The notes under the pieces are model-generated. The model worked only from the letters and a program-made list of their open reading frames with translations, made no database searches and was not told where the DNA came from. Shown one piece after another: positions 4,014 to 31,355 of a DNA stretch of 64,000 nt (positions within the stretch are counted from its first letter, which is position 1; every line of letters begins with the position of its first letter). Where the stretch lies: contig VMSV01000023.1 of NCBI GenBank assembly GCA_013791935.1, positions 4,779-68,778 of the forward strand, given 5' to 3'. The position numbers and the translations under genes are program-made. Source of the stretch: Desulfobacteraceae bacterium. GTDB lineage: Bacteria > Desulfobacterota > Desulfobacteria > Desulfobacterales > UBA5616.

Positions 4014-4048
4014 AGCTTCCGTCCTGTTTTCCGCATCATGCCTGTTGC

Positions 4049-7063: not shown

Positions 7064-7129
7064 GCTATAACCTAAATTGAGCGATTGTTCCAGTTTGCAA
7101 GTTCGCTCCTCATGAAGCACCAATCCATT

Positions 7130-12087: not shown

Positions 12088-12098
12088 GAGTATAAAAA

Positions 12099-14219
12099 AT
12101 GAACAACCGCAGAAAAATAGCATGCTTTGCCTTTATGATCTGGTGTGTGGCTTCCTTTGCCTTGGCCGTTGAAAACGATTTTTCGGTTTTCGATCTCGGG
12201 GAAATCGTGGTCACGGCCAAAAACCAAGGCCAGGAAGGCCCTTCCACGGTTTCGGAAATCACCGCTTTGGATATTGAAAAGAAAAACGCGTCCAACCTGG
12301 GGGATGCTCTGAAATGGATTCCCGGCGTTCATGTTCGTCAGGGCCGGACCAAGGAGGGTTTCTATATTACGCTTCGGGGCTATGAGCAGGAAAACGTCCT
12401 GATTCTTCTGGACGGCATTCCCCTCAACGTGCCCTATGAAGGGCTGGTGAACCTGGCAGACATTCCGGTGGAGAATATCGCCCGGATCAAAGTTGTCAAA
12501 GGCAATGCATCTGCTCTTTACGGCCCCAATGCCATGGGAGGCGTGGTGAATGTGATCACCAAAAAAGGGACTGATAAGCCGAGCCTTTCAGGCACCTACA
12601 GCGTCAGTGATTACAACACCCACCACCTGGTGGCAACCCACGGCTGGCAGGTGGGCAATTTCAGCTATTTTGTCGGTGCGGCCCACCAGCAGTCTGACGG
12701 CTGGAAACTTGCAGACACTTACGCCTACCCTGAAACGGTATATGCCAGTATGGCGGCGGCACCGGCCAACCCCGGAACCGTGCCCAACGTGCCTATTGCC
12801 CCGGATTCCGGAAAAAGAGAAAACTCCGATTACCGGAAAAACTCCATTACCTTTACCGGAAGCCTGGAAGCAACCCCTGAAAATACCCTGGGCCTGTCCA
12901 TGGAGTACTACAACCATGAATACGGCATGCCTGCGGTCCCCATCATTCGCGATCACCGTCGGGGAATCTTTTACTTTCCCAGGTACTGGCGTTTTTCCGA
13001 CTGGGAACGCTTCACGGTAAACCTGATCGATGAATACCGCATCACCCCAGCACTCAGAACCAAATTCCGGTTGTTCTACGATGATTACGACAATACCCTG
13101 GACGCCTATGATGGTCCGGACTATGCCACCCGGAACCGCATCGGGCCGCCTTCGGGCCCGGGGGAATATAATGACTACAGCAGCGGTGCCCAGGTCCAGT
13201 CCTTTTGGAACAATACTCAAAACAATGAAATCCGCCTGGGTGTCCAATTCAAACGGGATGTTCACAGGGAAAACTTCCTGGACGGACCCTTTGACACCCT
13301 GATTTCCCATACCCTGTCTCTTTCCCTGGAAGATGAATTGCGTATCGGAGATGGTTTGGCCCTTACCGCCGGTGCCGGTTATGATAGGTTTGACAAAAGA
13401 AAAAAGGACCAGGAAGAGGAAACGGACAAAGACCCGGGCAGAGATATCGAAACCTTCAGTCCCCAAGCGGGCCTTGCCTGGGATTTCAACGACGCCCTGA
13501 CGTTTTCCTTCTCCGTGGGAAAAAAGGTGCGTTTCCCCACCATGCGGAACCTCTATGCCGACGGGGTCCTGGGACCTGAAGGGAACCCTGATTTAAAGGA
13601 GGAAAAAGCCCTGAACTATGAAGCGGGAGCCACCTGGGCCGTCCGGGAGAACATCGAAGTGGATGGGGCGGTGTTTTACAGCGATATCACCGATCTGATC
13701 AACTTTGACAACATCATCGGCCGCTTCGAGCAGTATGAAAGCGCAGTGATCAAAGGCTTCGAACTGGGGCTGAGTACCCGTTTTTCAGAGGGCCTTCTGG
13801 CCAGGCTCGGATACACCTTCCTGGATACCCAAAACAATTCCATGGTCACCATTGACAACGAAATTCATGAGGATCTAACCTATAAACCCGATGAGCTTCC
13901 CTATCGATCGAAGCACAAAATCGATCTGGATGTGAGCAAGAAATTTCTTTTCGGTCTTGAAGTCGCGTTGAACGGAAGCTATTTTTCAAAACAGCGGTAC
14001 TACGACCATTACGATCCCACCAACATCAACCATATGGTGAGCATTCCCAAGTGGCTGGATGATTATTTTCTTTTCAACCTGAAACTCACCCGGAGAATTT
14101 CCAAAAATGCCGATGTTTTTCTGGCCGGCGAAAACCTTTTCAACGAAACCCATGAGGACATCTCCCTGGTTCCCGGAAAAGGCAGGGCCCTCTGGGCAGG
14201 TGTAAAACTGTCATTGTAA
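12099..14219 (+). CDS. TonB-dependent outer-membrane receptor
   Basis: Signal peptide, then plug motifs (GEIVVTA, DALKWIPGV, LLDGIPLN, VKGNASALYGPNAMGGVVNVITKK), followed by a long beta-barrel. Confidence 0.9.
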   Translation: MNNRRKIACFAFMIWCVASFALAVENDFSVFDLGEIVVTAKNQGQEGPSTVSEITALDIEKKNASNLGDALKWIPGVHVRQGRTKEGFYITLRGYEQENVLILLDGIPLNVPYEGLVNLADIPVENIARIKVVKGNASALYGPNAMGGVVNVITKKGTDKPSLSGTYSVSDYNTHHLVATHGWQVGNFSYFVGAAHQQSDGWKLADTYAYPETVYASMAAAPANPGTVPNVPIAPDSGKRENSDYRKNSITFTGSLEATPENTLGLSMEYYNHEYGMPAVPIIRDHRRGIFYFPRYWRFSDWERFTVNLIDEYRITPALRTKFRLFYDDYDNTLDAYDGPDYATRNRIGPPSGPGEYNDYSSGAQVQSFWNNTQNNEIRLGVQFKRDVHRENFLDGPFDTLISHTLSLSLEDELRIGDGLALTAGAGYDRFDKRKKDQEEETDKDPGRDIETFSPQAGLAWDFNDALTFSFSVGKKVRFPTMRNLYADGVLGPEGNPDLKEEKALNYEAGATWAVRENIEVDGAVFYSDITDLINFDNIIGRFEQYESAVIKGFELGLSTRFSEGLLARLGYTFLDTQNNSMVTIDNEIHEDLTYKPDELPYRSKHKIDLDVSKKFLFGLEVALNGSYFSKQRYYDHYDPTNINHMVSIPKWLDDYFLFNLKLTRRISKNADVFLAGENLFNETHEDISLVPGKGRALWAGVKLSL

Positions 14220-14344: not shown

Positions 14345-15091
14345 TTAAGCTTCTCCAGCCAGAAGGGCTGCCCCCAAGGCTCCCACCCCCTGGGGGTATT
14401 CGGGAACCAGGATGTCCCGGCCCAGCAAGCCGGTCAGTAAATGCCGCATACAGATATTGTTTGCCACCCCGCCTGCAAATACCAGGGGATCTTCAAGGGA
14501 TACTCTTTTAAGCATGGTCGCAGACCGTTTGGCCACGGCCATGTGCAATCCCTTTGCAATTTCAAGGGGGCTCTCCCCCTTGGCGATCAGGGTGGTGACT
14601 TCCGACTCCGCAAACACCGTGCACATGCTGTTGATGGATAGATTTTTCTCGGCTTTCAAGGCTTCTGTTCCAAATTCTTCAATGGTAAACCCCAGGGCCC
14701 TGGCCATGATTTCAAGAAATTTTCCGGTGCCGGCCGCACACCGGTCATTCATTTCGAATTTCTTGACTTTTCCATTTTCAGAAAGGGCGATGGCCTTGGT
14801 GTCCTGGCCCCCGATATCAAGAACAGTCCTCGCATGGGGAAACAGTTCCCTTGCGCCTCGGGCATAGGCCTTGATTTCGGTAACCGTTGCCGCATCAAAG
14901 GAGATTTCAAAGAGGTTCCGACCATAGCCTGTGGCCATGATTCGATCGTATGGAACCTCTCTCAGCATGGCCCGGGCTTTGGCCATGGGGTCAAAGCCCG
15001 TGTCCTCCTGAATACTTTTTACAATTTTTCCCTTTTCAACCACCACCAGCTCAATGGACCGGGAGCCGATATCAATCCCAGCAAATTTCAT
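14345..15091 (-). CDS. BcrA/BadF/HgdC-type ATPase: activator of 2-hydroxyacyl-CoA dehydratase / DCCP reductase (DCCP-R-like)
   Basis: MKFAGIDIGSRS..., DIGGQDTK, and DRCAAGTGKFLE (cluster-bridging Cys motif). The ORF extends to 15118; Met at 15091 is preferred. Confidence 0.9.
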   Translation of the reverse strand: MKFAGIDIGSRSIELVVVEKGKIVKSIQEDTGFDPMAKARAMLREVPYDRIMATGYGRNLFEISFDAATVTEIKAYARGARELFPHARTVLDIGGQDTKAIALSENGKVKKFEMNDRCAAGTGKFLEIMARALGFTIEEFGTEALKAEKNLSINSMCTVFAESEVTTLIAKGESPLEIAKGLHMAVAKRSATMLKRVSLEDPLVFAGGVANNICMRHLLTGLLGRDILVPEYPQGVGALGAALLAGEA

Positions 15092-15101
15092 ACTCACTGT
15101 C

Positions 15102-16379
15102 CTATTTAAGCTGCTCAATAAAGGCTTCCAGACGGGTTTTCAACTGCCCGGCATCCTCCATACTGTAATCGGTTTCAATTCTCAGGGTGGGTATATTATT
15201 ATCTTCCAGGGCCTTTTCAATAGGCATGGATTCCATGAGGTAAGGCTGGCAGAACTGCAAACTGTAGTGAATCACCCCATCCGCCCGGTAGGTTTTGGCC
15301 ATCTCTTTGATGTGGCTCAACCGATCCGGGTTGGGCGTAAAGATGGCACAATCGACTTTAAAGTAACGATCCACAAGGGCTTCCATGAGCTCTTCCACCG
15401 TACGGCCGGAATCATTCGTCAGGTTTCGGGTTCCCCGCTCCCCTACGCAGGACTCTTCTCCCACAATCACAGCGCCGGACGATTCGATGAGCCAGGGCAA
15501 CTTCCAGTTGGGAACCGCCATGGGGCATCCGGACAGAAGGACTCTTGGTGTTTTTTCCGAAAATACCCCCTGCTTATTTTGAATTCGGATTTCCAGCTCA
15601 TCACAAATTTTATTCACGGATTCCGTAAAACGCTTGGGATTATCATAGAAAAAAACCTGGTTGGCCAGGAGCGCGTCCAGTCCGGAAATCGGCGCCGGGT
15701 TTTCTTTTCTCAGCAGAGAAAGCCGGTGAATGGCTTTTCGTTTGGCGTTCACCGTATCAATCCCTTGTTTTAAAGATTCAACCGTGATGGTTTTGCCGGT
15801 GAGGCTTTCAACAGCTTCCTTAAACCGGTAATATTCCTTCTTGAGCAATTCGCGACCCATGGGGGATTTCACCTGGGGAAGGTCCATGACATAGAGGTTG
15901 CTCACCAGATCTTTTAAGGTTTCATAGGCTTTTTTCTTCCCATCGCAGGTATTTTCGCCCACCACCATATCCGTGGCCTCAAGATAAGGGCATACCTTTC
16001 CCAGTTTGAAACCGAAGGAGGATTTGATCAGGGCGCAGGTGTTCCGGGGCACGTATTTTTCCACCTCTTCCATGGCGAAATCCGCCCCGGCACACAATCC
16101 CACTAGGGTAGCATTGGCGGCCAGGGCGATTTCCTCGGGAACAAACACGCAATAAGACCCGATGATCTTCCGGCCCTGATCCTTTTCATCCATCAATTCC
16201 TTGATCCGAAGCCCGTGCACCTCGCTCATGACAAAATCAAAATAGCCCATGCCTTCGGGACGGTCTTTTTGGGACAGGAAAATGTCCTGGTATCCTTTTC
16301 CCAACACATTCAGCAGCATATCATGGGCTTCTAAATCCAGCCCCAGCTTCTCCCACATGCTTTTGTAATCTTCGCTCAT
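15102..16379 (-). CDS. Double-cubane-cluster-protein (DCCP)-like member of the 2-hydroxyacyl-CoA dehydratase / benzoyl-CoA reductase BcrC/BadD/HgdB family
   Basis: 425 aa. The N-terminus reads YKSMWEKLGLDLEAHD...RPEGMGYFDFVMSEVHGLRIKEL. It carries conserved Cys (VGENTCDGKKK, SGCPM, EESCVGERG, LQFCQPY) and lies immediately upstream of an activator ATPase. Confidence 0.75.
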   Translation of the reverse strand: MSEDYKSMWEKLGLDLEAHDMLLNVLGKGYQDIFLSQKDRPEGMGYFDFVMSEVHGLRIKELMDEKDQGRKIIGSYCVFVPEEIALAANATLVGLCAGADFAMEEVEKYVPRNTCALIKSSFGFKLGKVCPYLEATDMVVGENTCDGKKKAYETLKDLVSNLYVMDLPQVKSPMGRELLKKEYYRFKEAVESLTGKTITVESLKQGIDTVNAKRKAIHRLSLLRKENPAPISGLDALLANQVFFYDNPKRFTESVNKICDELEIRIQNKQGVFSEKTPRVLLSGCPMAVPNWKLPWLIESSGAVIVGEESCVGERGTRNLTNDSGRTVEELMEALVDRYFKVDCAIFTPNPDRLSHIKEMAKTYRADGVIHYSLQFCQPYLMESMPIEKALEDNNIPTLRIETDYSMEDAGQLKTRLEAFIEQLK

Positions 16380-16531: not shown

Positions 16532-16939
16532 CTAAAACCCCTTTTCCGTGGCCAGGCAAAGTCTTCCGGCCCCGGCGGCCTTGGCCAGATCCATGACCTT
16601 CACCGCCTTGTTTAAGACCACGGCTCGGTCGGCCTTGATCACCACCAGCCGGTTCTTGTCGCTGCCGATCAGGTTCTTAAGCTCTTTGAACAGCCGGTCC
16701 AGGGGAACTTCCTTATCCATGAGAAAAGCCCTTCCCTCCTGGTCCACGTAAACGGTTATCTCCTGCTGGGTCTGGGGGGCGGCGGCCCGGGCCTGGGGCA
16801 GTTTGATCTTGATGCCTTCATCCACCATGAAATTGGTGGTGAGGAGAAAATAGATCAGCAGCATGAACACGATATCGATGAGGGAGGTCAGGGGCGTCTG
16901 AATCGAATAGGGTGCTCTTCTTTTAAATTTCAAAGACAT
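16532..16939 (-). CDS. exbD: ExbD/TolR biopolymer transport protein
   Basis: 135 aa with N-terminal TM PLTSLIDIVFMLLIYFL. Conserved periplasmic domain ...VVIKADRAV.... Confidence 0.9.
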   Translation of the reverse strand: MSLKFKRRAPYSIQTPLTSLIDIVFMLLIYFLLTTNFMVDEGIKIKLPQARAAAPQTQQEITVYVDQEGRAFLMDKEVPLDRLFKELKNLIGSDKNRLVVIKADRAVVLNKAVKVMDLAKAAGAGRLCLATEKGF

Positions 16940-16950
16940 GTTTTTCCCCT

Positions 16951-17556
16951 TTATCTTCTGAAGATAGCCGTCATGAAGGCCACGGCCCCTTCCTGAATCC
17001 GGGCTTCATAATTGTCCACCCGGGCCAGGAGATAACTATGAGCCACCATGGTGGGAAGGGCTACTGCAAGCCCCAGGGCCGTGGTGAGCATGGCCTCCCA
17101 GATCCCGCCAGCCAGGACCGCGGCATTAACTTTTCCGCCCATCTGCTGAATCACCATAAAAGCCTTGATCATCCCCATCACCGTGCCCAAAAGGCCCAAC
17201 AGGGGGGCGATATTGCCGACGGTGGCCAGGGCCTGAAGGTAGGTGGAAAGGTTTCGCACCTCCTCTTCCGTGGAATGGGTGATAACGGATTCCACGGTTT
17301 CCCGATCCTGGTCCCGCACCTGGATGGCTTTGGACAAAACCCGGCCCATGGGGGAATTGCTCTCGGTGAGCAATTGATCGATTTCCTGAATTTTACCCTC
17401 CTTCATGAAATCAATGGTTTTCTGGGCCAGCCCCGCACCCCTGGCTTTCATCTTGGCAAACCGGATGACCCGTTCCACAAAAATGGCCAGGGCCAGGACC
17501 GAACACAGAAGAATGGGGATCACCAGAATCCCGCCTTTGGCTAAAAAATCTAACAT
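16951..17556 (-). CDS. exbB: ExbB/TolQ/MotA proton-channel protein
   Basis: 201 aa. Motif APLLGLLGTVMGMIKAF, with 3 TM segments. Confidence 0.9.
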   Translation of the reverse strand: MLDFLAKGGILVIPILLCSVLALAIFVERVIRFAKMKARGAGLAQKTIDFMKEGKIQEIDQLLTESNSPMGRVLSKAIQVRDQDRETVESVITHSTEEEVRNLSTYLQALATVGNIAPLLGLLGTVMGMIKAFMVIQQMGGKVNAAVLAGGIWEAMLTTALGLAVALPTMVAHSYLLARVDNYEARIQEGAVAFMTAIFRR

Positions 17557-17580: not shown

Positions 17581-19386
17581 TCAATTGGTGGCTGTTGCCT
17601 GTTCCGTTTTCTTGCCCATGTCTTCCATCACATCGGCCTTGCCGTCATAGTCCAAATCCCGGTCCCGTTTCACCAGGGCCTCGGATTCGTCATAGGTTTC
17701 CCAAACATCCGCCTTGCCGTCGAAATTACTGTCTTCCTCCACGGTGTTCACCAAACCCTTGTCATAAAAAAACCACACATCCGGGTTGCCGTCCCCGTTG
17801 CCGTCCTTTTCCGCCTTAACGGCCTCCCCCCCGGGGTTGTAGGTCCACACCATGTTGAGCCTTCCTGTGCCGTCCTCATCTTTTTCACTTTTGGTCAAAT
17901 GGCCCTTGTCGTCATAATACTCCCGCTCATTGATGGTTCCGTTGCTTTCCGGATCGCTTTCCTTGATGCACAGGGTCTTGTCCTTGAAAAAGGACCTCAG
18001 CTCCGGGTTTCCGTCGCTGTTCTCATCCACCTCCAGGACGGTGGTCCATCCGGGTCGGTCGAACCACTGGACGGTTTCAAAATGGCCGTTGTCATCCATA
18101 TCCTTGATGAGTTTTTTCTTTTCCTCGTTTTGATAGAAAACTTTCAGATCCACGGCACCGTTTTCGTTTTCGTCCTTTTCCACCCGGACCAATCGACCGG
18201 CTTCGTAGTACTGCCAGGTGTCGGTCTTGCCATTGAAATCCGCGTCACTTTCCACCCGCTCTTTTTCTTCCTTTGGGTTAAAATAGATCCGGATATCGGG
18301 GTCCCCCTTTTTATCCTCATTCACGGTTTGGAGATAAAGCTTTGATTTTTTATAATGAGAAACGGTTTCAATAAACCCGTCCCCGTCCGCGTCGTATTCC
18401 ACCTTCACGGCCTCTCCGTCCTTGAAAAACCGGATGCGGTCGATCCGGCCGGTGAATCTGGAGTCTTCTTTCATTTCCTTTAAAACGCCCTGGACATCAA
18501 AGCTCAGGAATTGGTCCATGATATCGTCAAAGTTGGTGTCCTTTTCCTGGGAAAAGGGTTTTCCGTTCCGGAAGGCGGTAAACACATCAAACCTCCCATC
18601 GCCGTTGGTGTCCTTCTGCTGCTTGGAAGGCTGGCCGGAAAAAAAATCCGTTGCCGTATCCGTCTTTCCGTCCCCGTCCGAATCTTTTTTTTCCTGAAGA
18701 ATTTCACCCTTGCTGTAGGATCGGAATACTTCCATTTTGCCGTCTCCATTCAGGTCATGTTGGCTCTCACGGGGTTGCCCTTTGTCATCATACCACACCA
18801 CTTGTTCCACGGAGCCGTTGCCGTCGCTGTCTGATTTCTTCTCCACCGGCTTGTCATTTTTAAAGGTGATCCAGGTGTTGGGCTTTCCGTCCTCATCCGT
18901 GTCCCGGGTACAGGAGGCCAGCGCACCGGCCTGGTACAAATACCGGGTGTCCAGCTTCCCGTCTTCGGTGGTGTCTTTTTCCACGGTAAGCGGGCGCTCC
19001 TGCTCGTCAAACGTCACGCATTCGATCACTTTTCCCTTTGGGTTCAGTCTCTCCATGCGGACACGTTTTTCGTTTTTGAAGTAGTCGATTCCATCATTTT
19101 TCCCGTCAAAATCCGAATCCCGTTCCGCCCGGACCAGGACATTGTTCTCATAGTACTGGAACCGGTCCATTATTCCGTCCTGGTTGGTGTCGATATCGAA
19201 CTGCACTGCCTTGCCCGCACCATCAAAGTGGATGATCCGGTCGGTTTTGCCGTCGTTGTCCGTATCCTTTTCTACGGTTTTTGCGGAGGCTCCATGGGCC
19301 GGTTCAAGCCATACCGGGTTAAAAACCAAAGCCACGGCAAAGGCCCCACAAAGGATCGTGAATTTTTTTATCATTCTGTTTTTCAT
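17581..19386 (-). CDS. Secreted repeat protein with about 22 units of roughly 26 aa, each carrying a D-x-D-x-D-G-K-x-D (EF-hand/thrombospondin-type-3-like Ca-binding) motif
   Basis: Signal peptide MKNRMIKKFTILCGAFAVALVF...AHG. Repeated motifs include DTDNDGKTD, DSDFDGKND, DTDEDGKPN, DSDGDGKTD, DTNGDGRFD, DADGDGFIE, DSNFDGKAD and DLDYDGKAD. The gene sits between tonB and exbB. Confidence 0.7.
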   Translation of the reverse strand: MKNRMIKKFTILCGAFAVALVFNPVWLEPAHGASAKTVEKDTDNDGKTDRIIHFDGAGKAVQFDIDTNQDGIMDRFQYYENNVLVRAERDSDFDGKNDGIDYFKNEKRVRMERLNPKGKVIECVTFDEQERPLTVEKDTTEDGKLDTRYLYQAGALASCTRDTDEDGKPNTWITFKNDKPVEKKSDSDGNGSVEQVVWYDDKGQPRESQHDLNGDGKMEVFRSYSKGEILQEKKDSDGDGKTDTATDFFSGQPSKQQKDTNGDGRFDVFTAFRNGKPFSQEKDTNFDDIMDQFLSFDVQGVLKEMKEDSRFTGRIDRIRFFKDGEAVKVEYDADGDGFIETVSHYKKSKLYLQTVNEDKKGDPDIRIYFNPKEEKERVESDADFNGKTDTWQYYEAGRLVRVEKDENENGAVDLKVFYQNEEKKKLIKDMDDNGHFETVQWFDRPGWTTVLEVDENSDGNPELRSFFKDKTLCIKESDPESNGTINEREYYDDKGHLTKSEKDEDGTGRLNMVWTYNPGGEAVKAEKDGNGDGNPDVWFFYDKGLVNTVEEDSNFDGKADVWETYDESEALVKRDRDLDYDGKADVMEDMGKKTEQATATN

Positions 19387-19389: not shown

Positions 19390-20106
19390 TCAGGTGGTCT
19401 CAAAAATGATGTTCAATTTCATGGGAATGTCGGACTTGAAAAATTTGAGAGGCGGCCTGGGAAAAGGCGCCGCGGTCTGCACAGCCTTCACCGCGGCCTC
19501 ATTCAGCACCTCATGCCGGCAGGGGGTCGCAATTTGAACCTCTTTGACTTCTCCTGCAATGGTCACCACAAAACTCACCGTCACCCGGCCCTGCTGCTGC
19601 AAGGACCGAGCGGATTCCGGGTAGCGTTTTGCGGATTCGATTTTCATCACCACCATTTCCAGGTAGCTTTTGGCATTCGTGTATTCCGCCCCCACATTGA
19701 GGAGATCCTCCATCTTGAATACCCCGGTGGTCTGGCCCATTCCGGCATCACTTTCAGGAATGCTGACCCCCTCCATTAACCCTTCCGCAAATTTTCCAGT
19801 GGGCGGATCCACGCTGATGGGCTTTACCGGTGCAATCCGATTGGGGGAAACGAAAATCTTCTTCACATCATGGGGCTGGTCCGGTTCCTTGGGCCGATGG
19901 GTAGGCCGGGGAATAGCCCGGTTGAAAGGCTTTCCGATGTCCTCCATGGTCAGTTCTATGAACTGAAGGGCTGCCTTGTTATAGAGCCCGGAGATATGTA
20001 AAAACAGTACAAAATGAATGGCGACGGAAACCAGAATCAGGCCCCGAAGCAGTTTATTGGGCTGTTTTTTGGGGGGAACAAATGCGTCCATGACCGTTGC
20101 TGTCAA
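19390..20106 (-). CDS. tonB: TonB energy-transducer protein
   Basis: N-terminal TM (LILVSVAIHFVLFL), a Pro-rich linker (IPRPTHRPKEPDQP), and a C-terminal TonB_C domain (GRVTVSFVVTIAGEVKEVQI...NEAAVKAV...PFPRPP). Confidence 0.9.
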   Translation of the reverse strand: MTATVMDAFVPPKKQPNKLLRGLILVSVAIHFVLFLHISGLYNKAALQFIELTMEDIGKPFNRAIPRPTHRPKEPDQPHDVKKIFVSPNRIAPVKPISVDPPTGKFAEGLMEGVSIPESDAGMGQTTGVFKMEDLLNVGAEYTNAKSYLEMVVMKIESAKRYPESARSLQQQGRVTVSFVVTIAGEVKEVQIATPCRHEVLNEAAVKAVQTAAPFPRPPLKFFKSDIPMKLNIIFETT

Positions 20107-20191: not shown

Positions 20192-22363
20192 TCAGAATGA
20201 TGCTTTCATGGAAACTCCGTAAACCCTTCCAGGCATGGGGTACCCGTAAATCTCCTGGTATTCCTCACCCAGCACATTGCCCACAAAAAAGTGAGCTTTG
20301 AGGTTTTCCCGGAATTCATATTCCATGCCCACATCCACGGTGATGAAATCATCCAGGGTGTAGACATTGCCTTCGCTTTCCCGTTTGCCTACATACCGGA
20401 TATCGGATGTGAGCAGCGTTTTATCCCAGATACGGTACCGCAAGCCCAGGTTGGCCTTGTGTTCCGGTGCAATCTCCAATAAAATGGGGCTGACATCAAG
20501 GTCGGCGCCACTTGCATTTTTAAAATAAAGTTCTTCTTCATCGTAATCGGTTTTCCGGTAGGTGTAATTCCCGAAAAAGGTCAGCTTGTCCGACCATACG
20601 CTGTTAAATTCCATTTCCACACCGTAGAAAATGATCTCATTCATGTTAAAGCCATAAGTGCTCTCCGCATGGAAGGTATCCGCCGCATTGGCCACGATAT
20701 AGTTACTTACGTCAATGTAATAAAAATTCACCCGAGTTTCCAATTTCTCCATGGGACGGTGAAACACGCCTAAATCATAATGCCAACTGGTTTCCGTTTT
20801 GATTTCATCGCCTTTATTAACTGAGCCGAAACTGGCCCAAGCAGAGCGATCTCAGCACCCCGGGACATGGTAGTCCCTGTTCACGGAAACAAAAAGTTCC
20901 GTATCCGGATTGAACCGGTAGGTCAGGGTGGATTTGGGAAGCCATTCCACGGTTTTCAGCAGATGACGCACCGAGGGAGAACTGGCCGTTTCCTTGTATT
21001 CATAGGTCCATTCCCGAATGTGGGCGTATCGCAGTCCGTAAAACGCAGACCATTTCGGGGTGAAGTTAAAGGTGTCCTCGCCATATAGTGCGTTCATCCG
21101 CCATACATCGGGTTTGTTTTCAACCTCCATGCGGCGCTGATCATATCCTAAAATCAGGTTATGGTTTTCCCACTGATCGAAAATCGTTTGGAATCGACCG
21201 CCCTTCTGGGCTTCCTTTCGACCTTCGCCACCGCTGAAATAGGGCTCTAGTTTCAATTCGCCAGGATCAACAACTCCGTCTCCATTGCCATCCCCCTTAA
21301 CTGCCCGGTAATAGAAGGCATCCTCCTGGCCGGCGCTTTTGTACAATTGGAACTTGAGTCGAACATTCTTTACCGGTTGCTCATAGGCCAGATCCATGTG
21401 CCGGGCGCTCTTGTTCTTGTAATTGTCGCCTCCCGGGAAGGAGGTGTACCGGTAACGCCTCACCGTATCCGAATCCTGCCTCACGATCGGGTAATCCGGA
21501 TCATAAAGATCTTTGACCAACAAGGTGCTGGCCGGATCCTTTGGGTTAACCTTCAGGGTGCAATCCGGATCATTGACCACAGCAAATCCGTGTTCCATCT
21601 GAGATCCCTTGAGCCCCAGGGTTAAATTCCCTTCAAAGGGAAACAAATAATTCACCCTGGTGGAATAATCGTACCCTTGATAATCATTATTCAACAGATA
21701 GCCGTCGGATTCCTTGTACCCGTAATTCATAAAATATCCCAGGTCGCCCGCGCCGCCATCCACGGTCGCCCGGCCCACAAAGGAGTTGAACCGGGAATAA
21801 TCCGTGGTGAGATTGATATCGGGCCTCAGGGTCTCCTTCTTCTTGCCTTTTTTGGTGATGATGTTGATAATGCCGCCCTGGGAGTTCTCATACTGGGCCG
21901 ATGCGGCCCCCCGAATGACTTCGATTTTTTCGATGTCTCCGGTGGTGAGGCTGGACCAGTCCACGTAGGTGTCGGCCCCGGCAGTGGGCCCGGTGATGGT
22001 CCTCCCGTCAATGGCGATGGTGAACCGGCTGTCGTCAAATCCCCGCATCATGACCATCTGCTGGGGATCGGCTCCGGAGGTTCCGCGAAGCACGTCGATT
22101 CCGGTGAGGTGCATGAGGATATCCTCCACCCGGTCCACGGACCCGCTCTTGTTGAATTTTTCAATATCAATCACGGTTTTTGTGGGGGTGATGGTGACAG
22201 CCCCGCCGTAAAAGGCCGTCACGAAAATATCCCCCAGGTCAATGGCCTCGGATTTTGGACAATCCGGGCAATCCTCCTTTTCGGGCTCTGCAAATGCCAA
22301 AGGCGTCAGAATCATCCATCCCAACAACCAGCAGCAAATCAGAGCGGTTTTAGCCACTTTCAT
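20192..22363 (-). CDS. TonB-dependent receptor interrupted by one in-frame TGA at 20852..20854 (Sec/read-through candidate, or nonsense pseudogene)
   Basis: ORFs 20852..22363 (signal peptide, plug, N-terminal barrel) and 20192..20767 (C-terminal barrel ending in ...MKASF) are in the same frame, separated by TGA plus 27 sense codons. Confidence 0.8.
20821..20854 (-). other. In-frame UGA plus downstream hairpin (candidate SECIS-like element; unproven)
   Basis: UGA-GAUCGCUCUGC-[UUGGGCC-AGUUUC-GGCUCAG]. The stem is 7 bp including 2 G-U pairs and starts 11 nt after the UGA. Confidence 0.3.
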
Positions 22364-23376
22364 CTGTTTTTACCTCCTTCTCCTCTCTCGTTGTCATTTT
22401 CTTTTGGTTCGGGCAAATAACGGTAATCCACAAAATTCCCCACCGGAACTACTTCCGGCAGGAATTTCATCTGAATCATCATGGCCTGCTGCCGATCAAT
22501 CTGTTCTTCCGATTCCCGGCCGTCATTGAACTCCCGAAGGGCGGATTTCATCGCCACATCCATTTCCACCCCGGCATACTTGGGAATCCATTTCCGGGCT
22601 TCCGTTTCGTGGTTTCGAATAAAGTCAAAGGCCTCCACCAGTCCCCTTAAAAAAGCCCGGACATTTTCAGGGTGCTCAGCCAGATACTCATCCGTAAAAA
22701 ACAGCCCGCTGAAAATAAAACCCGGGATGGCATCGTTAAACGATGTCAGAAGCCTGCTCGCACCATGCATCTCCAGCATGGTCGCTGTGGGATCTCAGGC
22801 CACAATAACATCCACCCCCTTGGACCTTAAAGCCGCCTCATGCTTCATGGCATCATCCAGGCGGATCCCCTTGATGCAATGAACATCCTCACGGGTAAGC
22901 CCGGCTTTTTTCAAGGTTTCGGCAATCATCATGGCCGTGGTGAAGGACCCGGATTCCGCCACCCTGGTGCCTTTTAAATCGTAAATCGTGTGAATGCCGC
23001 TTTTTTGGTCCACATGGAGCCCGCAGCGTGTTCCTTTATGGGCATGGCCCAGCCAAACCACCACCTTGATGGGGATATTCCTCAACCCGGCGTGGAAGGC
23101 TGAGCCCATTTCCAGGTGCCCGGCTTGAATATCCCCGTGGAGGGCGGCTGCAATGATATTCTGCTCCCCCACCAGCCGGACCAGCTCCACATCAAGACCG
23201 TTCTTCTTCCAGAAGCCTTTCTCAATGGCCACATACAGGGGAAGATCATCTATACTCCGGCCATAGGTCACCTTCATGGTTTCTGTGGCTCCCACCGAAA
23301 CCATGGAAGTAAGGACCGCCAGTCCCACGATAAGTCCAAACGGAAGAATCCTCTTCAAACCCGCTCCATGTTTCAT
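22360..23376 (-). CDS. NMT1/THI5-SsuA/TauA-like periplasmic substrate-binding protein (NitT/TauT ABC family) interrupted by one in-frame TGA at 22795..22797
   Basis: Signal peptide MKHGAGLKRILPFGLIVGLAVLTS. ORFs 22795..23376 and 22360..22779 share a frame and are separated by TGA plus 5 codons. The stop overlaps the receptor start (ATGA). Confidence 0.75.
22762..22797 (-). other. In-frame UGA plus downstream hairpin (candidate recoding or re-initiation element; unproven)
   Basis: UGA-GAUCCCACAGCG-[ACCAUGC-UGGAGAU-GCAUGGU]. The perfect 7-bp stem starts 12 nt after the UGA and contains two in-frame AUGs. Confidence 0.3.
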
Positions 23377-23409: not shown

Positions 23410-23480
23410 GTAGGATGGGTGAAACCCATCAACATAGCCGCCATTCCTTTTCATTTTTTGATGGGTTTCACCCATCCTAC
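23410..23480. repeat. Perfect 23-bp inverted repeat (25-nt spacer) in the permease/binding-protein intercistronic region
   Basis: GTAGGATGGGTGAAACCCATCAA ... TTGATGGGTTTCACCCATCCTAC. Each arm is itself a 7-bp palindrome (GATGGGT-nnn-ACCCATC). The right arm overlaps the permease stop codon. Confidence 0.85.
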
Positions 23481-24244
23481 CCGATTCCCGCCATGGAGGT
23501 CTCCGTGTGCCAGGATAAGACCCTTTTCTGCACCAGCCGCGCAACGCGGTCCAGAAAAAACCCCATCAGAGAGATGACGATGATTCCGGCAAACATCCTG
23601 TCTGTCGCAAAGGTTCTCTGGGCGTCTATCACCAGAAACCCGATTCCCGAATCCGCAGCCAGCATTTCCACCCCCACAATGGAGAGCATGGACATGGCCG
23701 TTGAAATTCGCATGCCCGTGATAATGGAGGGCATGGCGGAAGGAATCAGCACCATGGTCCACAGCCGCCGCCCCTCTGCGCCCAAAGACCGGGCGGCCTG
23801 GACCAGCCTGGCATCCACCCCCTTGATTCCGGCGATGGTGTTGATCACTATGGGGAAAAAGCAACCCTTGACGATGATGGCGGTTTTAGAAGCGTTTCCG
23901 ATGCCGAACCACACAAACATCACCGGAACCAGAGCGAAGGTGGAGATGGGCCGGATCAGCTCGATGAGGGGATCGAAAATCGTTTCAAAAATCCGGGACC
24001 AGGCCACCAGCAGGCCGATGAACAGGCCCAGCACCGCGGCAATCAGGTAACCTGAAAGCGCCCTTAGAATGCTGATGCCCACATGGGGAAAGATCTCCCC
24101 GGTGATGGTCATACCCCAGAGGGAGGTGAGCATGGCGCTGGGGGTGGGCAGAAAAAAGGGATCGATAAGGCCGGCCCTTCCGATCATTTCGCAGATGAGA
24201 AGAACGCCAAGGGGAGACAATGTTTTCCGCCAGTTGATTGTCAT
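23477..24244 (-). CDS. ABC transporter permease (NitT/TauT family, BPD_transp_1)
   Basis: Six TM segments with an EAA-like loop (GIKGVDARLVQAARSLGA). The Met at 24244 (MTINWRK) overlaps the ATPase stop (ATGA). The ORF-track N-terminal extension is rejected. Confidence 0.85.
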   Translation of the reverse strand: MTINWRKTLSPLGVLLICEMIGRAGLIDPFFLPTPSAMLTSLWGMTITGEIFPHVGISILRALSGYLIAAVLGLFIGLLVAWSRIFETIFDPLIELIRPISTFALVPVMFVWFGIGNASKTAIIVKGCFFPIVINTIAGIKGVDARLVQAARSLGAEGRRLWTMVLIPSAMPSIITGMRISTAMSMLSIVGVEMLAADSGIGFLVIDAQRTFATDRMFAGIIVISLMGFFLDRVARLVQKRVLSWHTETSMAGIG

Positions 24245-25011
24245 GGGTTTGCTTCCGATACTTCCTTCCACACCATCTGGCGCAGATCCTTTTCTATGGT
24301 TTTGAATTCCGGTAAAAACAGCGTTTCCCGGGTCCTGGGCCGAGGCAGGCCAACCGGAATATCCGCAATGATTTTTCCAGGCCTGCGGCTCATGATCAGC
24401 ACCCTGTCCGAAAGGTAGATGGCCTCGCTGATACTGTGGGTTACAAACAGAACCGTGCATTTGGCTTGCTGCCAGATGTTGAGCAGTTCCGCCTGCATCA
24501 TCTCCCGGGTCAGGGCGTCCAAGGCTCCGAAGGGCTCATCCATGAGCAGTAAAGACGGGTTATTGGCCAGGGCCCTGGCAATGGCCACCCTTTGTTTCAT
24601 CCCTCCGCTGAGTTCATGGGGGTATTGGTTTTCAAAAGCCTTAAGCCCCACCAGATCCATCAAATGGTAGGATATTCTTTTTTGTTCTTCCGAATCCTTC
24701 CCCCGAACCTTGGGGCCGAACTCAATATTTTTCCGGACCGTTTTCCAGGGAAACAACAGGTATTCCTGGAAAACAATGGCCCTTTCGGGGTCCGGACCCA
24801 GAATTTTTCGGCCTTTAAAAAGGATTTCTCCTTTTGTGGCTTTTTCCAGGCCGGCGGCCATGAGCAGAAACGTGGATTTGCCGCATCCGCTGGGCCCTAT
24901 GATGGACACGAATTCATTTTTTTCCACGCACACATTCAGGTCGGAAAGAGCTGTGATTTGCCTTCGTTTGCTGAACGCCTTTCCAAGTCCCCTTGCTTCG
25001 ATGAAGGCCAT
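24241..25011 (-). CDS. ABC transporter ATP-binding protein (NitT/TauT family)
   Basis: Walker A GPSGCGKST, signature LSGGMKQRVAIARAL, Walker B LLLMDEPFGALD. Confidence 0.95.
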   Translation of the reverse strand: MAFIEARGLGKAFSKRRQITALSDLNVCVEKNEFVSIIGPSGCGKSTFLLMAAGLEKATKGEILFKGRKILGPDPERAIVFQEYLLFPWKTVRKNIEFGPKVRGKDSEEQKRISYHLMDLVGLKAFENQYPHELSGGMKQRVAIARALANNPSLLLMDEPFGALDALTREMMQAELLNIWQQAKCTVLFVTHSISEAIYLSDRVLIMSRRPGKIIADIPVGLPRPRTRETLFLPEFKTIEKDLRQMVWKEVSEANP

Positions 25012-25012: not shown

Positions 25013-26167
25013 TCATTTTTCCGCCAGAATCTGTTCGATAAAGGCTTCGATTCTAACCTTCAGCTGGCCGATGTCCGACTGGGAGTAATCCGTGACCACG
25101 TGGAGGAAGGGAATCCCGTGCTTTTCCCGGACCAGCTCTCCCACCCGATAGGACTCGATGTTGAAGGCGTGGCAGGACTGCCAGGTGAGATCGATGACCC
25201 CGTCGATGTTGAAGTCCCGAATGAGCAAATCAATGTCGTCAAAACGGGTGTTGTTGGGAGTCATGCAGGAACAGGTCACCCGAAGATACCGCTCGGCAAT
25301 GGCGTCCAAAGGATCTTTGGTTTCATCGATGGGGTCGTTTAAACGGGTAACCCCGCCGCATCCTTCCTGGCAGACCACCACTCCGCCGCATTCTTCCACC
25401 AGGCGAAGAACTTTATCACACCCCAGGGAGTTACCCAGGCCGGTCCAGAGAATTCTGGGACGTTTTGCATCGCAGGCCGCGTAACCGGTTTCAATGCGCC
25501 GGGTCAGCTCGCTTAATATGGATTCGAGATTTCGATGATAGTCGGTTCGATCCACCGTGTATCCGGTTTTGGTGGATACGGCCACCAGGTCCAGACCCAT
25601 GATGGGAGGCGGCTGGACCTTTCGGCATTCATGGATGGCCTTTAGAAGTGCCCTTTCCTTGTTGCCCCGGGCGATGGCTTCCCGCAATGAAGTTTCTGTA
25701 ATCTTGACATCAAGCTGGTCTTCAATGAAAGCTTTAAGCTTTTCGATCTCCCCACGCCAGTGAATTTTGGCTTCCGGCTCCTCCGGTCTTTGGGGAAGAT
25801 CCATCACATGCATGGTTTTTTCCCGGGCCAGCAGCTCGTACATTTTTTTCCGGCCGTCACAGGTGGTTTCGCCCACAATGACATCCGCCAAAGGGAAGAT
25901 CGGACAGGTGTTGTTGATGGCCCGACCGTAGGTGGCCTTCACCATGGGACACTGATCGGCGGGAAGAACTTTTTCCGCTGCTTCGATGGGACCTTCGGTG
26001 GTGCCGCAGAGTCCAACGGAAATGGCCCCGGCCGCCCAGACAATTTCCCGCGGAAAGTAAGAACACAAGGACCCGACAACTTTTTTGCCCTCATCTTTGG
26101 CCATTTCCAACTGCTGGGCGAAATTGGTTTTTACCTCATCAATTTTCTGATTGACTTTCAGTTCCAT
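25013..26167 (-). CDS. 2-hydroxyacyl-CoA dehydratase / BcrC-BadD-HgdB family protein (shorter DCCP-like paralog), first gene of the ABC/receptor operon
   Basis: 384 aa. Shares Cys-containing blocks with 15102..16379 (VGETTCDGRKKMYE, CQEGCGG, LTWQSCHAFN). It ends with ...QLKVRIEAFIEQ, like the paralog (QLKTRLEAFIEQ). Confidence 0.75.
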   Translation of the reverse strand: MELKVNQKIDEVKTNFAQQLEMAKDEGKKVVGSLCSYFPREIVWAAGAISVGLCGTTEGPIEAAEKVLPADQCPMVKATYGRAINNTCPIFPLADVIVGETTCDGRKKMYELLAREKTMHVMDLPQRPEEPEAKIHWRGEIEKLKAFIEDQLDVKITETSLREAIARGNKERALLKAIHECRKVQPPPIMGLDLVAVSTKTGYTVDRTDYHRNLESILSELTRRIETGYAACDAKRPRILWTGLGNSLGCDKVLRLVEECGGVVVCQEGCGGVTRLNDPIDETKDPLDAIAERYLRVTCSCMTPNNTRFDDIDLLIRDFNIDGVIDLTWQSCHAFNIESYRVGELVREKHGIPFLHVVTDYSQSDIGQLKVRIEAFIEQILAEK

Positions 26168-27030: not shown

Positions 27031-27636
27031 TCAACCCCCGGCGCAGGCCCGGCAGAGGTTTTTGCCGTTTTTTTTCTGAAGTTTGGTCCCCATGACCCCC
27101 TCCCTGCAGAAATCGCAGGGAACCGAGGGGGCGATCTGCGCTCTGGCCGGCAGTTCCACGTTCACCTTCTGAACCGTAAAAAGCTTTTCTTCCGGCAGGG
27201 TCAAAACATCCCCGGTTCTTTTCAAATGCAGGCCGTCAAAGGCTTTCCTGTCGTTTTCATCCGCGGTTCCGCTGGTTATTTTCTGGATCAGGGCCATGTG
27301 GGCCGGGTCCGGCTTAAATGCATCGGGTTTCAAGACCACGCGAACCCCCTCGCCGGTATTTCGGGATAAAAGCGTTACGGCCACTTTTCCGTGGTCTTTA
27401 TAGATGAAATTGCCCTTGCCGAAGGTGCATCCGGTGAGAACCTGGATGGCGTCGGCGCAGCAGGCATCGGTTTCCACGATTGCAACGATTTCCTCGTCTT
27501 CGCTCCGCAGGGCATTCAATCTTTCCATGGCTGTTTTGGCGGCCCGAAAGCCCATGGAAAGACCCGGGCATAAATGACCGTGGAATTCCACACATTTTCT
27601 GAAATCTTCACTGTCCATAATTTCTTCTGCGCTCAT
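27031..27636 (-). CDS. FmdE/FwdE-family protein with a C-terminal zinc ribbon
   Basis: FHGHLCPGLSMGFRA...ETDACCADAIQVLTGCTFGKGN. The C-terminus reads CDFCRE...CRAC. Confidence 0.85.
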   Translation of the reverse strand: MSAEEIMDSEDFRKCVEFHGHLCPGLSMGFRAAKTAMERLNALRSEDEEIVAIVETDACCADAIQVLTGCTFGKGNFIYKDHGKVAVTLLSRNTGEGVRVVLKPDAFKPDPAHMALIQKITSGTADENDRKAFDGLHLKRTGDVLTLPEEKLFTVQKVNVELPARAQIAPSVPCDFCREGVMGTKLQKKNGKNLCRACAGG

Positions 27637-27646
27637 TATTTACTCC

Positions 27647-28747
27647 TTATTCTTCAGGTTTTAAAAAATTCGCCATGGCTCCCAAAGAACCATAGTCTTT
27701 TTTCATGGCTTCATACACCGGCTTTCCCACCAGAAACGTATAGATTTCGTCCGCCTTTTTTTCAGGGTCGATATCTTTGAAGGAGTCGGGGTAGAGGATT
27801 TTCCCGACGGCGTAGGCATCGGCCAGGGCCGTGCTGATATTTGTTGCGTACCAGTTGAACGGCAGCAGGGTATGGACTTTCTTCTCGGAAAAAGCCTTCA
27901 AGGAAAAATAAAATTCCGGCTTTTTGGAAAAGTCTTCCGTCACCAGGGCCAACCCTCCTCCGTCTATGAAGATCACATCCGGATTCATCTTCAAAAGCGC
28001 TTCCTTATCCAGAAAAACATGGCTGCCCATTTTGGTCTCCTGAGCCTCTGCCAGGTTGTTTGCGTTCACCCAGGAAAAAGGAAGGTAGCTTTTTTCCGTG
28101 CTCTCAATGCCGAAGGTTCCTTTATATCCTATTCCTCCCACGTAAACCGAAGGGCGTAGTTTTACCGGGATATGCTTTGTACGGGCGTTGAGATCCTTTT
28201 GAATGGATCCAAAATAGGCAATGACCTCATCGGCCCGTTTTTCACGGTTCAGGATTTTCCCTGCGATTTTAAGGGAATCCAAAAGGGCTTGATCAAAACC
28301 GCCCAGAGGGCCATAGCTCAATACCACAAAGGGAATCCCCGATATTTTTTGGGCTTCGTCCGCAAGGGGCGCATCCAGATAGGTCACAAAAACCACCCGG
28401 GGATTCACCGCCATGATGGATTCCAGGTCCGGCTTTTTGTTGATTCCTGCAGGGCCACCCGGACCGCAGGAAGGCAAGGAGGAAAATTCAGGGTGAGCAA
28501 GCCAGTAGGGCCGGCCCCTGGAGTTCATCTTCTCCATATTTTCCACCCCCGCCACCTTGTCCCGGGCCTGAAGATAGACCAGCAGCCGCAGCGCACCCGG
28601 ACCGATCCCGATGATTTTCTGAGGGTCCGGGGGTGTTCGGACTTCCCGCCCGACCATGTCCTTTACAATAAGGGTTTCCGCGTGGATCGGAAACGGGAGT
28701 ACGATGCAAAGCAGAATAAAAGCCAGAATAAAACCGGTTTTTTTCAT
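27647..28747 (-). CDS. Periplasmic binding protein of a FecB/FepB/BtuF-type (metal-chelate/corrinoid) ABC importer
   Basis: Signal peptide MKKTGFILAFILLCIVL. Followed by PQKIIGIGPGALRLLVYLQA...NPDVIFIDGG. The ORF-track N-terminal extension to 28831 is rejected (AGGAG lies before 28747). Confidence 0.85.
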   Translation of the reverse strand: MKKTGFILAFILLCIVLPFPIHAETLIVKDMVGREVRTPPDPQKIIGIGPGALRLLVYLQARDKVAGVENMEKMNSRGRPYWLAHPEFSSLPSCGPGGPAGINKKPDLESIMAVNPRVVFVTYLDAPLADEAQKISGIPFVVLSYGPLGGFDQALLDSLKIAGKILNREKRADEVIAYFGSIQKDLNARTKHIPVKLRPSVYVGGIGYKGTFGIESTEKSYLPFSWVNANNLAEAQETKMGSHVFLDKEALLKMNPDVIFIDGGGLALVTEDFSKKPEFYFSLKAFSEKKVHTLLPFNWYATNISTALADAYAVGKILYPDSFKDIDPEKKADEIYTFLVGKPVYEAMKKDYGSLGAMANFLKPEE

Positions 28748-28763
28748 CGGGGTCTCCTTGTTT

Positions 28764-29516
28764 TTATACCGGCACCACCACCTGATGGCCGCCGATGTCT
28801 TGGAGAAGAACATTGACGTCATAGACTTCACTGATGATTTCAGAGGTTAGCCCTTCCTTTGGCACCGCCGCGTGAATGCTGTTGTTTTTCATAAAAACAA
28901 ACCGGTCGGCAAACCGGAGCGCCGTGTTTAAATCATGAATGGCCACCACGGCAGCCAACTGCTGTGTATCCACAATCCTTCGAATCAGGCCCATGACGTC
29001 CAATTGGTTTTTCAAATCCAAATTGCTGGTGGGTTCATCCAATAGCAGTATTCCAGGGCTCTGGGCAAGGGCCCTGGCAATCCCTACCTTTTGCATCTCG
29101 CCGCCGCTTAAATCGCTCACGGGTCGCATGGCCAGCTGGGCCAGGCCGATTTCCTGAAGGATCCTCTCCACCAGGAGGTAGTCGGTTTGTTGCACGCTCC
29201 ATTGGATATGGGGCTTGCGGCCCAGGAGCACCGCTTCAAAAACCGTCAGGGACGTTTCCGGATGGCGCTGGGGCACATAGCCCATGATTCGGGCGATCTG
29301 CTTCCTGCCGAGAGAAAGAAGATTTTCTTCCCCGACCATGACGTTGCCTTTTCCGGCTTTCAGTATCCGGTTCAAGCATTTCAGCAGGGTGGATTTCCCT
29401 GCTCCGTTCACTCCCAGAATACACATCATCTGACCCGGATTCAGGTGAAAACGGATATCCGACAACACGGGGTGGCTATTGTAGGAAAAACAAATATCCC
29501 TCACCACCAGTTTCAT
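28764..29516 (-). CDS. ABC ATP-binding protein (FepC/FecE/BtuD type)
   Basis: Walker A GVNGAGKSTL, signature LSGGEMQKVGIARAL, Walker B ILLLDEPTSNLD. Confidence 0.95.
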   Translation of the reverse strand: MKLVVRDICFSYNSHPVLSDIRFHLNPGQMMCILGVNGAGKSTLLKCLNRILKAGKGNVMVGEENLLSLGRKQIARIMGYVPQRHPETSLTVFEAVLLGRKPHIQWSVQQTDYLLVERILQEIGLAQLAMRPVSDLSGGEMQKVGIARALAQSPGILLLDEPTSNLDLKNQLDVMGLIRRIVDTQQLAAVVAIHDLNTALRFADRFVFMKNNSIHAAVPKEGLTSEIISEVYDVNVLLQDIGGHQVVVPV

Positions 29517-31344: not shown

Positions 31345-31355
31345 GCTCTTCTCCC

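Follow-up and report, generated by a model that had tools for sequence, protein, structure and literature searches.

Introduction

The closest described relatives of the system considered here are the selenocysteine-assisted organometallic (SAO) system of Clostridioides difficile and other anaerobes, in which Sec-bearing substrate-binding and permease subunits have been linked to double-cubane proteins (Haft & Gwadz, bioRxiv 10.1101/2022.07.06.499078), and the FCYXU-type receptor, a selenocysteine (Sec) protein published in 2025 from Desulfosarcina sp. BuS5 (deep-Sep, PMC12013277), which a 2026 review lists together with an outer-membrane barrel selenoprotein of the MtrB/PioB type (PMC13188914). 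We have analysed a 64-kb stretch of DNA from a Desulfobacteraceae bacterium (contig VMSV01000023.1; the whole stretch is hereafter called the window), in which a TonB-dependent receptor gene on the minus strand is interrupted by a single in-frame TGA. The data indicate that this TGA is very probably recoded as Sec by SelB and a selenocysteine insertion sequence (SECIS) element, and that the substrate-binding protein (SBP) gene directly upstream, which also contains an in-frame TGA, encodes a second candidate selenoprotein of the same operon.

The locus shares with the SAO system an ATP-binding cassette (ABC) importer with Sec in its SBP, and the Sec lies at the same site of that protein (SaoX 'T-U' at residues 191-192, here A/T-U-D-P with A/T-U at 193-194). 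Common to both are also a TauC/SsuC-like permease, a tight link to double-cubane reductases of family NF040772 with an activase, and an occurrence in anaerobes only. The two systems are nevertheless distinct, since the window SBP and permease score below the SaoX (NF040735; 52.2 bits, cutoff 300) and SaoP (164 bits, cutoff 295) models and none of SaoL, SaoE, SaoT, SaoC and SaoB was seen in the window unit, which thus differs from the nine-gene sao locus. Furthermore, the window permease is without Sec, the window adds an outer-membrane Sec receptor with TonB and ExbBD, and Sec is the rule in the window SBP family whereas it is rare in SaoX.

The FCYXU receptor resembles the window receptor in being a predicted TonB-dependent selenoprotein receptor from Desulfobacterota with a Cys...Sec pair, TGA and Cys homologues and a SECIS-like hairpin, and differs from it in the motif, which is CxxU as against CU (PGCU). 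The window receptor reaches only 283.6 bits with the FCYXU model (cutoff 825), has no FCYxU motif and is not a member of that type. It belongs to NCBIfam family NF049946.1, 'TonB-dependent receptor, CU motif-type' (release 20, June 2026), so that its kind is already curated. For the search, U was replaced by C in the joined protein, which then reached 1155.6 bits (cutoff 700) and aligned end to end (residues 5-723 on profile positions 3-682/683). It has the Cys-Sec dipeptide in the family's column, with Sec encoded by TGA, and the plug-and-barrel architecture of a TonB-dependent transporter, and shows no structural difference from the family. An earlier note on this DNA had been aware of no described outer-membrane selenoprotein, a statement that NF049946, PMC12013277 and PMC13188914 have made outdated. 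In the searched literature no paper dealt with the CU type or with the operon and function that go with it, the family being present as a database model only, and the same was found for the terms 'CU motif-type', PUIUD and PCPU.

The sibling types PCPU (NF049947) and PUIUD (NF049944) carry Sec before Asp at the same barrel site (RDYHVPGC-U-D in the window receptor, RSYRLPCP-U-D and REMRMPUI-U-D in the siblings), have a hairpin at the same offset and are likewise annotated as 'split' in databases; unlike in the CU type, the partner chalcogen is a Cys at -2 in PCPU and a second Sec at -2 in PUIUD. The window receptor stays below the cutoffs of both sibling models (372 and 389 bits against 800 and 850). 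When checked on the DNA, PUIUD has two TGAs (MP-U-I-U-DLWRW...) and PCPU one (LPCP-U-DYYWW...); in the loci concerned (L036, 9001..11055; L037; L038, 5529..7631) Sec is kept at this barrel site within other operons. The further envelope and transport selenoproteins of the 2026 review (the GSU2204/MtrB-PioB-type beta-barrel, BtuF with CxxU, YeeE/YedE and SO_0444 efflux; PMC13188914) show that Sec in such proteins, including an outer-membrane beta-barrel, is recognised, but they differ from the window receptor in fold and family and have no homology to its Sec site.

The receptor gene and its in-frame TGA

The earlier note had placed two open reading frames, 22363..20852 (503 amino acids) and 20767..20192, in one frame with a single TGA parting them, and this was borne out on the minus strand, where the TGA is found at 20854..20852 within ...DYHVPGC*DRSAWASFGS.... 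The motif strings quoted for the two other receptors of the window are both present as well, while the distance from the TGA to the second frame, given as 27 sense codons, came to 28 on a recount up to the downstream GTG. Pfam recognises a Plug and a TonB barrel domain, and the N-terminal piece stops at position 244 of the barrel profile while the C-terminal piece restarts at 258, which indicates a point stop in a contiguous gene and not a frameshift or deletion. The full product has a signal peptide, a CPDC motif, a plug and a 22-strand barrel, and ends in an aromatic residue (...SMKASF) before the true terminator, a TGA at 20194..20192 (minus).

With the joined protein as query, about 80 homologues sharing 41-86% identity were retrieved. 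Nearly all of them have a length of 470-510 amino acids and cover about 70% of the query. The C-termini of approximately 78 of these database proteins are almost uniformly ...DYH(V/L/F)PGC. For 22 full-length orthologous loci, taken from one genome per species in Desulfobacterales, Desulfatiglandales, Nitrospirota, Acidobacteriota and other groups, the codon following ...PGC is TGA in 21 and in none of them TAA or TAG. Beyond the TGA the orthologous frames stay open for some 205-212 further codons (219 in the window gene), which encode a conserved C-terminal half-barrel (tblastn E values from 1e-36 to 1e-89). The sole sense variant is locus L016, whose 668-residue protein P0024 has TGC, that is Cys, in the same column (PGC-C-DRP) and scores 926 bits with NF049946. 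The comparison of this column across orthologues, which the earlier note had proposed as a check, has thus returned TGA or Cys only.

A column that holds either TGA or Cys, with similarity running through it, is at the sequence level the classical signature of a selenoprotein. The presence of the same TGA in 21 of 22 species-level orthologues excludes chance, and the TGA/Cys column with similarity continuing on both sides rules out a nonsense pseudogene. The kinds of evidence used by Haft & Gwadz are at least 10 examples with TGA at the site in all, similarity through the U position together with a Cys homologue in the same column, and a SECIS-like stem-loop just 3' of the UGA; here the window gene and 21 loci all have TGA, L016/P0024 provides the Cys homologue, and the stem-loop is found in 22 of 22 genes.

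Two readings in which the TGA ends the protein have to be considered against these observations. According to the first, a recent CGA, TGG or TGC to TGA nonsense mutation has made the gene a pseudogene of a decaying operon, with the TGA of the upstream gene as a second lesion. The gene is indeed intact apart from this one stop, and a TGA is found in its neighbour too, but the same column is TGA in 21 of 22 orthologues and ends about 78 database proteins, the C-terminal 219 codons are open and conserved, the upstream TGA is itself conserved in 18 of 18 loci, selected hairpins follow both TGAs, and a curated selenoprotein model is matched above its cutoff, so that this reading retains next to no probability. 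According to the second, termination is genuine and the 503-residue plug and half-barrel is functional, with or without a separate C-terminal fragment, as in a split receptor. Gene callers of all source databases annotate the locus in this way, and a GTG lies 28 codons downstream. Against this, conservation is unbroken over the junction (C-U-D-R-x-x-W) and through the 28 codons that precede the GTG; a C-terminal fragment lacking a signal peptide could not reach the outer membrane, and a half-barrel of 13 strands is unable to close; P0024, the Cys form, is one chain of 668 residues with a single 22-strand barrel in the structure model; and the stop is never TAA or TAG. We regard genuine termination as extremely improbable.

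The SECIS-type hairpin

The hairpin of 7 base pairs that the earlier note had described 11 nucleotides 3' of the UGA was confirmed in sequence and position (Table 1). All 22 TGA-bearing genes, from the window and 21 loci, possess such a hairpin, with the apical loop approximately 21-28 nucleotides from the U of the UGA. It overlaps codons for a surface-loop peptide that differs by clade (WASFGS, WARAGL, MSAGGK, LIGLAGQ, YYMRTGA), and the stems are compensatory in a clade-specific manner, being GGGCC/GGCUC, UGGGCUGC/GCAGCUCA, GCGCA/UGCGC, UGCC/GGCA, UUGGCCU/AGGCCAG and UUGCCUC/GGGGCAA. Bacterial SECIS loops usually have a G in the first two positions, which is the rule used by bSECISearch, and most of the receptor hairpins conform to it. 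The downstream hairpin, another feature that the earlier note had wished to see compared across orthologues, is accordingly kept and shows compensatory changes.

For each hairpin, 500 synonymous recodings of the 15 codons concerned served as the comparison, which separates selection on the RNA from conservation of the peptide. The z value was negative for 22 of 22 receptor hairpins (mean z -1.87) and 13 of the 22 were individually significant at p<0.05; the weakest hairpin was that of the Cys homologue. The minimum free energy of the whole region, compared with synonymous recodings, went in the same direction and was weak (mean z -0.86 versus 0.01 for the control), the hairpin statistic restricted by position being much sharper. 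A fixed-column MAFFT alignment of the 55 nucleotides 3' of the UGA was found unfit for counting base pairs owing to differences in loop length, and the test per sequence was used in its place. When the region was scanned with Rfam, nothing but noise came up for SECIS, and as Rfam is without a general bacterial SECIS model no family match was to be expected.

These data also bear on read-through that does not depend on a SECIS element, in which near-cognate tRNAs would put Trp, Cys or Arg at the UGA. UGA is the leakiest of the stop codons, which speaks for such a process, but it leaves unexplained a compensatory hairpin at the distance typical of bacterial SECIS elements, the strict alternation of TGA and TGC, and the sel genes that lie beside the operon in three lineages (see below). 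Moreover, both the receptor gene and the SBP gene terminate on an ordinary TGA without read-through extensions. Such read-through is in our view very improbable, and together with the pseudogene and with true termination or a split gene it takes up only a very small part of the overall probability. The main proposal of the earlier note, a UGA read as Sec to give a full-length receptor with a Cys-Sec dyad, is therefore supported by the TGA/Cys column, the compensatory hairpins and the sel genes that flank the operon of three lineages, and the sober alternatives it had offered, a nonsense mutation or leaky read-through, are effectively excluded by conservation and hairpins.

The upstream substrate-binding protein

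The in-frame TGA that the earlier note had seen in the next gene upstream is present at 22797..22795, but its explanation as operon decay did not hold, as the gene appears to encode a conserved second selenoprotein with TGA in 18 of 18 orthologous loci, Cys homologues and a hairpin of its own. The 18 loci include L016, whose receptor has Cys. Approximately 85 SBP homologues in the databases end at the Sec codon. Cys occupies the Sec194 column in eight full-length homologues of about 50% identity (P0122-P0127, P0131 and P0136), while distant ordinary binding proteins have Phe, Ile or Ala there. The SBP hairpins, tested against synonymous recodings in the same manner, gave a mean z of -2.03 with one compensatory pair, C-G to U-A, in L011.

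The SBP is of the SsuA/NMT1 type and falls below every NCBIfam cutoff, for instance that of SsuA_fam (105.8 bits versus 163.5) in addition to that of SaoX, and its Cys form P0122 also remains below the SaoX cutoff at 74.9 bits. The Sec-bearing family appears from these scores to be uncurated. By profile offset its Sec falls where SaoX, in rare cases, carries Sec, and His113, Cys118 and His121 are invariant. The stop codon of the SBP gene overlaps the ATG of the receptor gene (ATGA, 22360..22363), which suggests translational coupling of the two.

Position of the dyad in the structure model

An AlphaFold2 model was made of P0024, the natural Cys form (pLDDT, the predicted local distance difference test, 88.3; pTM, the predicted template modelling score, 0.88). 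It contains 22 barrel strands with short even-to-odd turns, and the CC dipeptide (residues 460-461), which comprises the only cysteines of this protein, follows directly after strand 13 at the start of a 23-residue extracellular loop, L7. Foldseek returned generic TonB-dependent transporters only (BtuB, FhuA, PqqU, FecA), which is the canonical fold. A sequence search of the PDB matched YncD and PqqU alone; these aligned the motif, with the dyad opposite 'IN' of the conserved RGFETPT-IN-EL, and gave no functional assignment. From the model, the dyad would lie at the base of extracellular loop 7, in the barrel mouth where TonB-dependent transporters bind their ligands. L7 of FecA and FepA takes part in ligand binding and closure, and a role of the dyad in contacting the ligand is thus plausible. 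A placement of the dyad beside the periplasmic 'lock-region' glutamate had also been considered and was dropped, since a count of the strands puts it where strand 13 ends on the extracellular side.

Linkage to selenocysteine genes

An Rfam scan of the orthologous loci revealed tRNA-Sec genes adjoining the receptor operon in three metagenome-assembled genomes outside Desulfobacterota, and family searches confirmed the neighbouring genes. The Nitrospira locus L012 has selC-selB (2127..4141) immediately upstream of the receptor and also a molybdopterin oxidoreductase near the operon. One acidobacterial locus, L014 (Acidobacteria), has selC, selD as a selD-AhpD fusion, selA and the start of selB (7081..13348), and the other, L018 (Acidobacteriota), has a NifS-like desulfurase, selC and selD (6570..11135). 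In both of these, DCCP2 (a double-cubane protein), activase, selD and selC are co-oriented and abut the receptor operon, an order that hints at a link of double-cubane reductases to the synthesis of selenophosphate.

It is tempting to consider on this ground that the operon takes up selenium, with the dyad and Sec194 capturing a selenium compound through Se-Se or S-Se bonds and the double-cubane reductases yielding selenide for SelD. SBPs of the SsuA/TauA type bind small anions and organosulfonates, which would fit such a cargo. The linkage in L012, L014 and L018 and the co-oriented order in the latter two are in its favour, as is the finding that 955 of 970 high-scoring double-cubane proteins occur in genomes with SelD, the authors of that work having themselves suggested a processing of selenium compounds; the 2026 review notes that a specific prokaryotic selenium importer is not known (PMC13188914). 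On the other hand, an importer dependent on Sec would, with selenium scarce, face a bootstrap problem, the genes of client selenoproteins are often accompanied by sel genes (the molybdopterin oxidoreductase of L012 being at hand), the linkage is confined to 3 of 22 loci of which two are from related Acidobacteriota, and the sibling receptor types stand in corrinoid- or metal-like contexts. We consider selenium uptake unlikely on balance. If it were true, the receptor, the SBP, the ABC importer and the two ATP-activated double-cubane reductases would make up a dedicated route from the envelope to the cytoplasm, which scavenges and reduces a selenium compound, or another chalcogen-bound cargo, and passes it on by Se-Se and S-Se exchange to supply SelD. 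For prokaryotes it would be the first system of selenium uptake that is specific and of high affinity, and the double-cubane proteins would gain a physiological substrate.

Possible function of the two selenoproteins

The sequence of events that we propose is as follows. The hairpin 11 nucleotides past the UGA would recruit SelB with Sec-tRNA(Sec), and the ribosome would then make one TonB-dependent outer-membrane transporter of 723 residues with a Cys503-Sec504 dyad. The selenolate/thiolate pair would capture a thiophilic cargo, be it a soft metal or a compound that is organometallic or contains a chalcogen, and TonB/ExbBD would energise the passage of this cargo across the outer membrane. 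The periplasmic SBP may take over the cargo by means of Sec194 and the invariant His113, Cys118 and His121, and after import by the ABC permease the cargo would be processed in the cytoplasm by the ATP-activated double-cubane reductases. The steps after translation, that is capture of a thiophilic cargo at the selenolate/thiolate site, relay, import and double-cubane processing, are put forward tentatively and with slightly less than even confidence. The most likely cargo under this proposal is a thiophilic metal or organometal; it could also be a selenium compound. If the cargo is a metal or organometal handed on in this way, the window system would be an analogue of the SAO system that is equipped for the outer membrane.

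The earlier note had been reminded of redox-active selenenylsulfides, and a catalytic Cys-Sec selenenylsulfide at the cell surface, acting in the reduction or isomerisation of the cargo, has therefore been weighed. Vicinal or near-vicinal chalcogen pairs are found in all sibling types (C-U, C-P-U, U-I-U, C-x-x-U) and many members have N-terminal CxxC motifs, both of which would suit such chemistry. However, no reductant is known on the external side of the outer membrane, and this makes a surface redox role less likely; the Cys pairs near the N-terminus lie in the periplasm, vary, and are missing from several members including P0024; and the partner SBP, with a single Sec and the His/Cys/His set, resembles a binding site and not a redox centre. 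We judge the redox role to be quite unlikely.

Several observations speak against the proposal as a whole or in part. As to the recoding, a complete set of sel genes is absent from the 64-kb window, in which no tRNA gene was found either, and the searched literature offers no support from 75Se labelling or mass spectrometry for insertion of Sec. As to the place and role of the dyad, L7 has a pLDDT of only 57-70 in the P0024 model, and the ligand-contacting role is deduced from topology. As to the cargo, PUIUD genes adjoin two tetrapyrrole methylases and a DUF4198 gene whereas the PCPU gene of L038 lies in a FecCD/ABC/Peripla_BP_2 (BtuCDF-like) cluster with methyltransferases, so that the Sec site may be generic rather than specific for one cargo. 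In addition, the window holds no riboswitch or regulatory RNA that could serve as a clue to the cargo, and where the permease corresponds to the gating position of SaoP no Cys or Sec was found, by an approximate profile offset that is too imprecise to interpret.

For annotation, the receptor and SBP genes are to be treated as two single selenoproteins and not as four fragments or pseudogenes, and nearly all public homologues (in these searches about 78 receptors and 85 SBPs) still end at the Sec codon. Sec is usually found in redox enzymes, while here it is predicted in the barrel mouth of an outer-membrane transporter and also in the periplasmic SBP that goes with it, the genes of both being linked to those of double-cubane reductases. 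Even with a thiophilic metal or organometal as cargo, the SBP would represent an uncurated selenoprotein family and the operon an SAO counterpart equipped for the outer membrane. The receptor kind itself is already catalogued; what is worth following is the uncurated Sec-bearing SBP, the conserved import module of two selenoproteins with double-cubane reductases, and the linkage to sel genes. The operon is genetically tractable for asking what cargo passes along Sec-lined paths, why double-cubane proteins and SelD co-occur, and whether anaerobes have a dedicated uptake of selenium or thiophilic metals.

Gene organisation and neighbouring features

The features of the locus are collected in Table 1. 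The minus-strand unit spans 26167 to 14345 and comprises eleven genes, from a double-cubane reductase to an activase, and the core order activase-DCCP-ATPase-permease-SBP(U)-receptor(CU) recurs across the orthologous loci. The permease scores 164 bits with TauC, the same as with SaoP.

Table 1. Positions of the receptor operon, its predicted recoding signals and other Sec codons in the window
Feature	Position	Strand	Basis or remark
Double-cubane-cluster anaerobic reductase (DCCP1), first gene	25013..26167	minus	NF040772, 480 bits (cutoff 350); synteny
ABC transporter ATPase	24241..25011	minus	Pfam, synteny
ABC permease, TauC/SsuC/SaoP-like	23477..24244	minus	Reading frame reaches 24460, start likely near 24244
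SsuA/NMT1-type (SaoX-like) ABC substrate-binding protein, 338 amino acids, predicted Sec194, motif A-U-D-P	22360..23376	minus	TGA conservation, homologues
UGA, probable Sec194 of the SBP, GVDVIVA-U-DPTATMLEMHG	22795..22797	minus	TGA in 18/18 orthologous loci
SBP SECIS-type hairpin, ACCAUGC / UGGAGAU / GCAUGGU, 7 base pairs	22762..22782	minus	Synonymous recoding test
TonB-dependent receptor, predicted full-length selenoprotein	20192..22363	minus	723 amino acids including Sec504; NF049946, Pfam, orthologues
N-terminal CPDC motif, between signal peptide and TonB box	22259..22270	minus	Variable Cys-pair region in most family members
UGA very probably read as Sec, Cys503-Sec504 dyad, ...DYHVPG-C-U-DRS...	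20852..20854	minus	TGA in 21/22 orthologous loci
Receptor bacterial SECIS-type hairpin, UUGGGCC / AGUUUC / GGCUCAG	20821..20840	minus	Begins 11 nucleotides past the UGA; G at loop position 2; 5' arm 20840..20834, loop 20833..20828, 3' arm 20827..20821
TonB	19390..20106	minus	Family search
Secreted protein, 601 amino acids, about 20 DxDxDG (Ca-binding-type) repeats	17581..19386	minus	Conserved in cluster
ExbB and ExbD	17556..16951 and 16939..16532	minus	Family search
Second double-cubane reductase	16379..15102	minus	NF040772, 473.6 bits
BcrAD/BadFG-type ATP-dependent activase	15118..14345	minus	TIGR00241, 231.8 bits
Sec codon in large HdrA-like fusion protein	51378..51380	plus	TGA in frame
Sec codon in MvhD/FlpD, CCNF-U-GY	55670..55672	plus	TGA in frame

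Altogether there are four Sec codons in the window. The two outside the operon, in HdrA and MvhD, had been read as such in the earlier note, and the TGAs at 51378 and 55670 are real. They indicate that this genome decodes UGA as Sec, and for the Sec machinery of the host they are indirect support, as are the sel genes by the orthologous operon of L012, L014 and L018. Since the receptor and SBP genes both also terminate on TGA, the SECIS context alone would distinguish Sec from stop within one mRNA.

A CxxC motif is present at the N-terminus in 35 of 78 members of the receptor family, many others having repeated CPPGxxC and a few neither. Among the N-termini of P0001-P0081 the Cys pairs before the TonB box take the form of CPDC, CPEC or two to four CPPGxxC repeats, and are missing from several. 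Many loci retain the protein with DxDxDG(K) repeats, encoded between the genes for the receptor and for ExbB, and in the PUIUD loci a gene for 581-590 amino acids occupies the same position.

In L001 a cobalamin riboswitch (13578..13760, plus strand, 103.5 bits) closely follows the TonB gene of the orthologous cluster; it is directed towards a gene beyond the end of the locus and exerts no control over the cluster. The window also contains a second uptake cluster (27031..33500, minus strand) with a TonB receptor without Sec, a methyltransferase, a FecCD permease, an ABC ATPase, a Peripla_BP_2 protein and an FmdE-domain protein. The best NCBIfam match of this receptor is the CU-type model, at 248 bits and below the cutoff, and the gene content of the cluster resembles that around the PCPU-type Sec receptor in L038.

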